IMG/VR virus record: IMGVR_UViG_2778261355_000014
Span: 1-43,084 of that record
Source of the DNA: a virus
Lineage: Duplodnaviria; Heunggongvirae; Uroviricota; Caudoviricetes
Direction: 5' to 3' (one strand)
DNA: 43,084 nt
Position numbers and translations under genes: made by a program. The notes under the pieces were generated by a model. It was not told where the DNA came from and made no database searches. It was given only the letters and a program-made list of their open reading frames with translations. Below are positions 6,307 to 8,571 of the stretch, piece by piece; the first letter of the stretch is position 1; each line of letters starts with the position of its first letter.

Positions 6307-8571
6307 TCATGTCGATGAGTTAATTTCCTCAATGATACGCTTCAGGATTTCATTATTTCTGCGTTGTAATGCAGCTTCAAGGACTAAAGCCTCTTCATAA
6401 CGAATACCATAACGTGAGCCTGCCGGAGTGACCAGAATATCTTCATATTCTGGTTCTGCCTCTTCTTCATACTCTTCTTCTACTTCTTGAAACTCTGTCT
6501 CGATGTACTCCTCTTCTACATCTTCAACTACAGGAACGCTTACGAATGGATTTTGCGCAAAAGGTGAACCATCTTCATTAAGAACAGGTATCATTTCCAT
6601 TTTTGGAGTCTGATACTCTTCATTCACTACTCGTTTAATCCGTGTTCCGTCTTCCAGTACCTCATCCTTTAATACCTGACGACTCTCAGTAACCATCACT
6701 GGTTTGCTTACAATTCGAGTTTTAGTAACCTGCACTGGAACTGTTGTTATGCGAGTTTTAGTAACCATTACACCTTCGTTTGTCTGAACCTTAGTATATT
6801 GATCATCCCACTCGTCAAAGCAAAAGAATCCAAATCGGTGCACATCAAGCCCATGACGTTCAAACGCCTCCTTTGCACGTTGAGCTATTACGCCAAAATG
6901 CCAACGAGCTCCGTCTTCCCCTTTTTCTTCTGTTCTGTCAAGATACTGAAATTGAACGAAGTCAACCTCTGACCATGCGTCAAGTATTGTATCAGTGATT
7001 TCAAGAGGTGCAGTTTTAGCTCGCTCATCTGAAGTAACGGTAAAGGCTGTTTGAGTGAATCCACCAGACCACACACGACCAGCAGTTCCGACCGTGCTGT
7101 TACTGTTCTGTGATAATGGTGCAATAGATGAGTCTACTATTACAATGCCATCCCCTTTTGGAGATAGCCTCAAATGAATATCTTTATCGCTTCCAGCAAC
7201 GCCAACAGCAGGAGCATTAGATTCTGTATGCGAGCGCATGGATAGATAATTGGCAGGAACTGTAGGTCCAGACTCTATGGCAAATATAGGCAACCCAGAC
7301 GATAATCGTGTAAATACTACGCCATTATCACTAAATAACATTCTGGTTGATCTGGTTGCATCCTCCAAAACAGAGAGTATTTCAGAAGTTTTCTGATTTA
7401 AATTGTTGTACCAGGTCATTGAGTGCCTATTACCAAAAGCAATTGCCACACCTTGACCTGTTGATTCTCCATCGGTTCCTTTAAGGCTATTACTGCCAAA
7501 TACGATGCCCTTCAGAAAGCGCGCTGTTTTCCCAGCAGTTTTGTCGTTAGCTATTATTCCAATTGCTGCCGATGCAGCATTCAACACTTCTCCAGCTTGG
7601 GTTAATTCACCACCTGAGCCTAACCATAATGCGTCAGTCTGACCGTTGGGGAACATTGAATTAGGATACATTTCACGCTCATTCCCCCTGTTTGCTATAT
7701 CAAGTTCAAGACCGTGACTTGCTCCTATTGTTCCTGCATTGCGTATAGCTGAACCGTACAAGGCCCACACACTTGATCGTGAGCCAGATGTATCATCGTT
7801 TATCGCAGTACCTGCCACCCCTAATGCAGCACCGCCTGCACCACCGAGGGCAGTGTGTGCCGACCCGTAAACACCTATGCCGTCAGGTGGCGCAATAAAT
7901 GTATTTCTACAGTGTCTTTCGAGATAGTAAAATATATTATTACCTACACCTGACAACCAAGGTACCTGACGCAGCCAGTATCCACCTATAAATGAAACCC
8001 CCATCTCCATTTCCCATGATGTAAGGGGATCAGACACTACATCTTGGGTTAGTTTGTATGTGCCCGCTGGGATATAAATTTTACTTTTCGTGGCATTGGC
8101 AGCCAGAAACGCCGCAGTTGAATCAAGCACACCAGTAGGATCAGCACCTCCGGCAAAACCACTCCAAGTAACAGGCTTTGCTAATCCTCCGACAAATCCA
8201 GCTCCACCAGGACCCTCCAGTTCAGATCGCAGTTGATCAGGGTCATACTTCAGCACATTCGGAAAATAGAACTGCTGAGCACCGTACGCATCATAAACAG
8301 CCATAGAATGGCCTTGCACGGTAACGAATTTGGCAATCTGTCCGTTATATACCGGATATCCGGCAGCGTTAATGATGATTGGTTGAGATACAGGAACGTG
8401 AGAACCGTCTTCATTCTCCACATAAACCTGAATCTGGTTTTCAGGATTTACAGGGTCAGTGTCAATTTTGCCGATATAAATTTTGCCATTGGCTACGGCT
8501 TTAAAAGAACGCGCCATAGTGAAGAGTTGCGAAGGCATGCTTACCACAACATTGGCTGTAATGTCTGTCAT
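6307..8571 (-). CDS. Tailspike: P22 gp9-type head-binding N-terminus, divergent receptor-binding domain, C-terminal chaperone-like/acidic region
   Basis: N-terminal ~110 aa [43 protein letters not shown]... nearly matches P22 gp9 as recalled, rest unrelated; C-terminal [15 protein letters not shown] motif and acidic repeats. Confidence 0.85.

Follow-up and report, generated by a model that had tools for sequence, protein, structure and literature searches.

Which surface polysaccharide is recognized by the tailspike encoded at positions 6307..8571 (minus strand) of the viral record IMGVR_UViG_2778261355_000014, and from which parts was this protein assembled? The 43,084-nt stretch of DNA that was analyzed, referred to below as the window, is a P22-like (Lederbergvirus-type) prophage at tRNA-Arg (argW), adjoining intS. 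It is 100% identical to sequences of Escherichia coli ATCC 43886 and E2528-C1, and 99.9% identical to that of the O25:NM strain 2014EL-1343-2. According to the list of open reading frames (ORFs), the tailspike coding sequence specifies 754 amino acids, with an ATG start and a stop codon at 6307-6309. We conclude, with a probability of roughly 0.8, that its product is the single receptor-binding spike of an apparently intact P22-like prophage, that it combines an anchor, a body, and a self-cleaving chaperone in a swappable mosaic, and that it has a GT2-family glycosyltransferase (GT) as its partner. The protein is an uncharacterized example of a well-known modular P22-like design with an endosialidase-type chaperone, and it does not represent a new system.

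In the mechanism that we favor, the tailspike would form a trimer that residues 1-118 dock onto the tail. Residues 119-513, which comprise a putative beta-helix body and a stalk, would bind and probably cleave a polysaccharide on the host surface, most likely the O-antigen. Residues 514-754 are expected to nucleate folding of the trimer and then to cut themselves off between Thr513 and Ser514, which would leave a mature spike of 54 kDa and an acidic fragment of 28 kDa. The gene for the GT2 enzyme lies in the slot between the integrase and tailspike genes, where P22-like phages carry genes for receptor modification. The protein is already public, although its annotation is only generic: the RefSeq record (WP_032199584.1) reads “phage tailspike protein.” This exact protein belongs to a 90% identity cluster of 89 members, and the identical 754-aa form is present on 39 contigs.

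The head-binding, or tail-attachment, domain at the N terminus (residues 1-118; 8218..8571, minus strand) was delimited by its Pfam and PDB matches. The Pfam family Head_binding (PF09008) aligns with residues 1-113 over its entire profile (positions 1-113 of 113; E 2.7e-67; 224.6 bits for a cut-off of 24). This domain is identical to that of P22 gp9 at 87 of 116 positions (75%), but it reaches 94-97% identity with HK620, CUS-3, and several E. coli podoviruses, and 90% with Sf6 gp14. It is therefore of the P22 type, but of the E. coli/Shigella branch. An earlier interpretation of this DNA, made from its letters without database searches and called here the sequence-only reading, had likened the first ~110 residues to P22 gp9. 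The domain type was correct, whereas P22 is not the nearest relative, given that HK620, CUS-3, and Sf6 (90-97%) are all closer than P22 (75%). The same reading held that similarity to the P22 tailspike ends after this domain, and indeed none of the PDB sequence matches to the tailspikes of P22 (gp9), Sf6 (gp14), and HK620 extends past residue 117-118. The PHROG label “colanic acid degradation” (phrog_8280) was set aside as uninformative with regard to specificity, because it covers only the anchor (residues 1-135).

Comparison with P22 gp9, Sf6 gp14, and HK620 gp9 therefore extends no further than the anchor at the sequence level. Like the present protein, these tailspikes are the sole receptor-binding proteins of P22-like virions, and O-antigen modification genes adjoin their genes. 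In contrast, they have no S74 chaperone and are not processed at the C terminus, and no similarity to them is found past residue ~118.

Evidence for a chaperone begins with a match to Peptidase_S74 (PF13884) over residues 514-575 (E 1.3e-14; 54.6 bits for a cut-off of 22). The chaperone core comprises residues 514-594 (6790..7032, minus strand), contains RWHFGVIAQ at residues 556-564, and is modeled at a predicted local distance difference test (pLDDT) score above 90. At its start lies the putative autocleavage motif S514-D-E-R-A-K519 (7015..7032, minus strand), for which alignment to 3GW6 and 3GUD predicts the scissile bond T513|S514. Ser514 aligns with Ala911 of K1F endoNF (3GW6, an S911A mutant) and Lys519 aligns with Lys916 of the same protein. 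Furthermore, the corresponding sequence, SDERHK, opens the released GA-1 chaperone (3GUD), and the mature chain of K5 lyase (2x3h) terminates immediately ahead of this position. In T5 pb1, the lysine activates the serine and the bond before the serine is cut, which requires a correctly folded trimer (PMC4690869). By homology, a Ser514/Lys519 dyad is predicted to cut the tailspike at Thr513|Ser514, and the computed products are 53.9 kDa and an acidic fragment of 28.0 kDa.

A structural model of residues 455-754, built from 41 sequences, has a mean pLDDT of 84.8 and displays the alpha/beta body, beta-hairpin tentacle, and C-terminal helix of this chaperone fold. When the model was submitted to Foldseek, it matched 3GW6 (E 6.7e-10) and also 3GUD, 4UW8, and 7DC3 / the MyRF ICA domain. 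The predicted C-terminal helix (residues 725-753; 6313..6399, minus strand; model residues 271-299, pLDDT 93-98) has the same topology as in T5 pb1 and K1F. In solved chaperones this helix forms a trimeric coiled coil (PMC4690869). The sequence-only reading had suggested an intramolecular-chaperone or self-cleaving module on seeing the RWHFGVIAQ motif, the TKTRI units, and an acidic tract, all of which are present in the C-terminal part. That suggestion gains support from the S74 profile match, the alignment of S514 and K519, and a predicted fold that matches 3GW6, 3GUD, and 4UW8.

Although K1F endoNF (3GW6), GA-1 gp12 (3GUD), and T5 pb1 (4UW8) share the Ser/Lys motif, alpha/beta body, tentacle, and C-terminal helix that are predicted here, they differ from the window protein in its 129-aa tentacle segment, its 12-aa repeats, and its strongly acidic descending arm. 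Likewise, the 843-aa “Tail spike protein” of PDB entry 9vvr resembles the stalk and S74 core over residues 468-594 (172.8 bits) and has the C-terminal helix. However, it is without the ~105 extra residues that are inserted in the window protein after FDEWDD, and its body and N terminus are unrelated.

The extra residues belong to an elongated beta-hairpin (residues 595-716; 6424..6789, minus strand) that was recognized from the model, from 36-nt DNA repeats, and from paired indels. The ascending arm is basic and contains three 12-aa VxVT(K/E)(T/S)R repeats (601-612, 613-624, and 625-636), in which TKTRI occurs at 604 and 616 and a degenerate third unit, TESRQ, at 628. The descending arm is acidic, with xVEEEY at 648-653, 684-689, and 696-701, and residues 660-705 include 16 acidic and no basic residues. 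DNA repeats with a 36-nt period are found in both the basic and the acidic stretches. In the model, very long strands (pLDDT ~90) ascend through residues ~602-638, turn at EDGT (640-643), and descend through residues ~644-704 with a bulge. What might be taken for a separate module is thus a single chaperone hairpin, one arm of which holds the TKTRI repeats and the other the acidic tract.

Solved chaperones have a beta-hairpin tentacle at the same place, where the alpha/beta body gives way to the C-terminal coiled coil; the T5 tentacle has ~40 residues and measures 50 Å, and that of K1F is about 20 Å longer (PMC4690869). The tentacle described here is two to three times the usual length, and its ~37 residues per arm would correspond to a hairpin of roughly 120 Å. 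Among 60 homologs, the length of the linking segment is bimodal, with most proteins having 8-56 aa and a long class having 109-133 aa (129 aa in the window protein). The long class includes Leclercia and Klebsiella proteins, whereas most relatives, like 9vvr, lack the elongated hairpin. When segments were aligned across length classes, the 109-residue class was found to have lost one 12-aa basic unit together with one acidic unit. Only the hairpin base (VQTNEG...EPEYxDVL) persists in the shortest homologs, and the lengths form a nested series. The paired indels in both arms, which do not depend on AlphaFold, point to a hairpin that is lengthened from its tip. Growth apparently took place by 12-residue duplications on both arms, which indicates that the tentacle of an endosialidase-type chaperone can be extended by matched repeat duplication.

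Residues 595-716 have a biased, repetitive composition, and the net charges of the arms are unbalanced (about +3 ascending vs −18 descending). Moreover, the homolog P0078, whose body is 80% identical, does without the long segment. These features would also be expected of a flexible, low-complexity acidic linker in which expansion by slippage is tolerated and no functional hairpin is formed. We find this explanation improbable, since long strands are predicted at pLDDT ~90 with alternating polar and hydrophobic residues in both arms, and since sequence conservation among the E. coli, Leclercia, and Klebsiella proteins is 50-60%. Indels are matched in both arms while the hairpin base is kept across the nested series, and solved homologs have a hairpin at exactly this position. 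Some observations nevertheless temper the interpretation as a functional hairpin. P0078 has a segment of just 23 residues, so the long hairpin is not required to fold this body, and the geometry derives from a monomer prediction with few long-type sequences in the alignment. A fold search of BFVD returned many S74 proteins, none of which matched the long hairpin (TMq <= 0.41). We regard the long, repeat-built hairpin as a modest structural variant that leaves the understanding of tailspike architecture unchanged.

How the protein was assembled is best seen by comparison with a sister prophage that occupies the same integration site, for example in E. coli HCM-25C-3. Its 810-aa tailspike (WP_464350882.1) is ~99% identical to the window protein over the equivalents of residues 1-144 and 526-740, the whole long hairpin included. 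Its body belongs to the same family but is only distantly related, and a CatB-type O-acetyltransferase takes the GT2 slot. The limits of ~99% identity therefore place the junctions at residue ~144 (GFAGGAD|) and around the cleavage site. Long-hairpin chaperones are present in 14 of 5,426 complete E. coli genomes, joined to this body in four and to the sister body in 10. Anchor and chaperone form a constant frame into which bodies are swapped by recombination, and the sequence-only reading was right to call the tailspike a mosaic with a P22-type N-terminal domain on an unrelated body. The locus offers an unusually clean case of cassette exchange, in which both the body and the modifying enzyme are replaced and the frame is conserved.

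The sister tailspike (L015:3447-5879, minus strand, HCM-25C-3) and the related proteins P0014 and P0017 also carry an insertion of ~21 aa just after the cleavage motif. This insertion produces tandem TSDE(R/N) motifs (FTVTSDENHKT...FVVTSDERLM), which gives such proteins two potential sites of autocleavage. In these proteins Pfam S74 is matched only from profile position 14 onward.

The receptor-binding body and stalk (residues 119-513; 7033..8217, minus strand) were defined by HMMER relatives and a family profile. They begin with a conserved linker and beta-helix cap (residues 119-144; 8140..8217, minus strand) that reaches to the 5' recombination junction at residue ~144, and the same linker/cap motif is found in tailspikes with other N-terminal adaptors. 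No Pfam family scores above threshold in residues 119-513, residues 119-465 have no match in Pfam or the PDB, and the PDB contains no full-length relative of the body. NCBIfam likewise has no match for the tailspike. Among 50,697 phage records there is no close relative of the body, the best being a protein of Stappia phage SI01 with 29% identity over 55% of the query. In neither the PDB nor the phage records was a full-length match to any characterized tailspike encountered, and the absence of similarity past residue ~118 agrees with the proposal of the sequence-only reading that the body is unrelated to that of P22. Specifically, the body has no similarity to the catalytic domains of P22, Sf6, or HK620, including the endorhamnosidase body of the P22 gp9 type. 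It also has no Pfam or PDB match to the GH58 catalytic beta-propeller of endosialidases, and the similarity to 3GW6 is limited to stalk and chaperone.

A word-indexed search gave 11 matches and suggested that the body was nearly unique. This notion was overturned by an exhaustive HMMER search of 1.84 billion representatives, which assigned 801 representative clusters to the body family (E <= 1e-30 for 60). In the four nearest relatives (55-80% identity), the same body and S74 domain follow different N-terminal adaptors, namely a TSP1/Gp66-type adaptor, the N terminus of a P2-type fiber, and two others. Body and chaperone therefore move between phage types as a unit.

We infer that the body folds as a pectate-lyase-like right-handed beta-helix. 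A profile built from 19 trimmed bodies aligns with phi29 gp12 over ~45 residues (E 6e-7), and it also matches beta-1,3-glucanase, alginate C5-epimerases, and polygalacturonases, in each case only through the N-terminal cap and first rungs (~45-70 residues). In addition, the pectate-lyase-like family PF12708 matches 13 of the 19 body relatives, with a best E value of 5e-12. Two results count against this assignment. On the tailspike itself PF12708 scores 16.6-17.5 bits for a cut-off of 27, and again over the first rungs only, while an AlphaFold model of residues 1-513 (12-sequence alignment) has a pLDDT of 42.7 and is unusable for judging the body fold or an active site. Nevertheless, conservation within the family draws attention to particular positions: across 56 members Tyr272 and Glu289 are invariant, and Arg277, Asp291, Glu322, Lys354, and His383 are conserved. 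All of these are candidate active-site residues. The protein is an uncharacterized receptor-binding protein, and a putative enzyme, encoded by a prophage that resides in enterotoxigenic E. coli O25.

The closest precedent for this arrangement is CUS-3, a prophage of E. coli K1. Its tailspike likewise joins a P22-type head-binding domain (96.6% identity over residues 1-119) to a C-terminal S74 chaperone. Both prophages have an integrase at the prophage end and the order ant, tailspike, modifying enzyme, int. In CUS-3 this order reads ant - tailspike - neuO - int, with neuO occupying the slot of the GT2 gene. The NeuO enzyme acetylates the K1 capsule, which the CUS-3 tailspike degrades. The differences are that the present body is not an endosialidase and has no GH58 or beta-propeller match, that a soluble GT2 replaces the O-acetyltransferase NeuO, and that the chaperone hairpin is far longer.

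The resemblance to CUS-3 raises the prospect that the tailspike targets a capsule or other exopolysaccharide, such as the K antigen of O25:K98 strains, and that the GT2 enzyme modifies this polymer. The CUS-3 architecture is capsule-specific and carries the capsule-modifying neuO in the same slot. Moreover, clusters that contain GT2 homologs also encode UDP-glucose dehydrogenase, an enzyme characteristic of acidic polysaccharides, and the tailspike is carried alongside both O25 and O15 clusters and not with a single O-cluster. Yet most of the P22-like spikes that have been studied are O-antigen-specific, and the type of receptor-binding protein in prophages tracks O-serogroup (PMC10408124). 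The body also has no similarity to the catalytic parts of endosialidase or K5 lyase, as the match to 2x3h reflects only a shared stalk. A capsular target is thus the main alternative, though an unlikely one, and our best guess for the receptor is the O-antigen, probably O25.

Host genomes give this assignment some direction. Of the four complete genomes with this tailspike, three contain an O25a-type wzy-GT-GT-wzx block (at least 99% identity), which is present in only 35 of the 5,426 complete E. coli genomes. Several facts speak against a firm link to O25. The three O25a carriers are probably one clone, essentially a single clonal group of enterotoxigenic E. coli, and the fourth carrier was isolated from a yak and contains a degraded prophage. 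Its cluster is of the O15 family and shares L-FucNAc genes with O25. Furthermore, a second, different body is also present in O25a strains, so a simple rule of one body per serogroup fails. O25a was found in five of the 10 sister-type genomes. Strict O25 specificity, which we considered, is weakened both by the carrier of the O15 cluster and by the second body type. As judged from sequence, the serogroup contains two alternative, putative receptor-binding/modification pairs.

O25a-type strains with either pair at argW (this tailspike with GT2, or the sister tailspike with CatB) include F5505-C1 (O25:H16), NCCP 13717, LR883012, 203740, and HMDUC-17. In the O25 cluster of ATCC 43886 (NZ_CP024256.1; L016:96-1158 and L019:5816-6921), the O-antigen polymerase gene wzy and the L-FucNAc pathway gene wbjC are annotated as frameshifted. 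Either these frameshifts are assembly indels or the full O25 antigen is no longer made, which would matter for the receptor. Nothing specific on an O25 prophage tailspike turned up in a search of the literature, and the paper on E. coli tailspikes and serogroups leaves O25 uncovered (PMC10408124). The O25 antigen is clinically important, and a tailspike that proved to be O25-specific might find use as a depolymerase or typing reagent, and with the GT2 enzyme it would form a documented seroconversion pair for O25.

The neighboring gene (4496..6241, plus strand) encodes this GT2-family glycosyltransferase moron of 581 aa, with a DxD motif at residues 332-334. The sequence-only reading had called it glycosyltransferase-like, and Pfam agrees through GT-A type domains (Glyco_tranf_2_4, E 4.7e-18; Glyco_transf_92, E 6.3e-09); NCBIfam has no match for it. 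No transmembrane segment was detected, the maximum 19-residue Kyte-Doolittle mean being 1.27. A Gtr module is made up of a flippase, a bactoprenol glucosyltransferase, and a serotype-specific transferase, all three of which are membrane proteins, and what is found here is a single soluble protein. Because it has a DxD motif and no membrane segment, the enzyme is not of the Gtr type. Neither Pfam nor NCBIfam has a model that matches residues 1 to ~245 (4496-5230, plus strand). The gene is annotated with a GTG start codon, and no sigma-70-like promoter was identified in the interval that separates it from int.

The GT2 gene adjoins this exact tailspike in all 24 contigs that were read, even where the ant side differs. 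Its relatives (47-49% identity) sit in polysaccharide clusters together with glycosyltransferases, UDP-glucose dehydrogenase, epimerases, and a methyltransferase. Receptor-binding protein types of Lederbergvirus track the O-serogroup of the host, and modification genes often lie behind the gene for the receptor-binding protein (PMC10408124). The GT2 enzyme probably glycosylates in lysogens the same polysaccharide that the tailspike would recognize. A functional link between the two genes, which the sequence-only reading had also envisaged, is plausible, as it fits their position, their constant adjacency, the covariation of the enzyme with the body, and the precedent of neuO in CUS-3.

A more ambitious proposal concerns both the unusual hairpin and the GT2 enzyme. 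Long-hairpin chaperones might constitute a functional subclass of their own among S74 domains, with charge-asymmetric tentacles of ~120 Å, built from paired 12-residue repeats, that run beyond the stalk along the whole beta-helix body. Until cleavage, such tentacles might cover the receptor site; alternatively, the acidic 28-kDa fragment might take on another role once it is released. Separately, the GT2 enzyme could provide a non-Gtr, cytoplasmic route to O25 seroconversion, paired with an O25-specific depolymerase. We offer the combination only tentatively and doubt that it is correct as a whole.

The surrounding genes conform to the P22-like order int - moron (GT2) - tailspike - ant - arc/mnt - ejection proteins, with the tailspike gene after ant/immI and beside int. 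The integrase gene intS (3033..4226, plus strand; Pfam and RefSeq annotation) lies near the prophage end, which is marked by the tRNA-Arg gene at 2833-2907 (ARAGORN). The antirepressor gene ant (8672-9550, minus strand) adjoins the tailspike gene on its other side. GC content is ~32-34% in the GT2 region, ~44-46% in the tailspike gene, and ~50% in the virion genes. A terminator-like hairpin lies between the convergent GT2 and tailspike genes (6252..6272, plus strand; an 8-bp stem with six GC pairs, then TATTTTCT), and another lies in the gap between ant and the tailspike gene (8635..8654, minus strand; an 8-bp stem, then TTTTTAT).

Degenerate copies of this locus elsewhere suggest the alternative that the gene is a decaying prophage remnant whose protein is nonfunctional. 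The tailspike gene is split and the prophage degraded in E. coli QML220614, and the sister tailspike is frameshifted or interrupted by an insertion sequence in several genomes. In the window, however, the tailspike ORF is intact, and the ORFs for P22-type terminase, portal, scaffold, coat, and ejection proteins are all full length. An identical protein on 39 contigs that keeps the catalytic motif and all family-invariant residues makes decay very improbable, and we retain the reading of a working spike.

The split tailspike of QML220614, the yak isolate (L002:6003-8429), survives as a C-terminal fragment of 531 aa plus a pseudogene for the head-binding part. Its GT2 is 608 aa and overlaps the 3' end of the tailspike gene, and the remaining prophage is mostly deleted. 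In this strain the tailspike-GT2-int block has outlived the phage.

Identical tailspike-GT2-int blocks are joined to two types of immI/antirepressor region, P22_AR_N+C and Bro-N+P22_AR_C (L004 and L008 vs L005-L007), which therefore indicates recombination at the ant-tailspike boundary. This boundary is the same place as the boundary sequence bsq1 that is annotated in CUS-3. A 132-aa ORF runs antisense to the head-binding coding region (8233-8631, plus strand); it has no support and is probably spurious. Finally, the prophage carries an internal pair of adjacent tRNA genes, tRNA-Thr(TGT) and tRNA-Asn(GTT), at 29239-29394 (minus strand).

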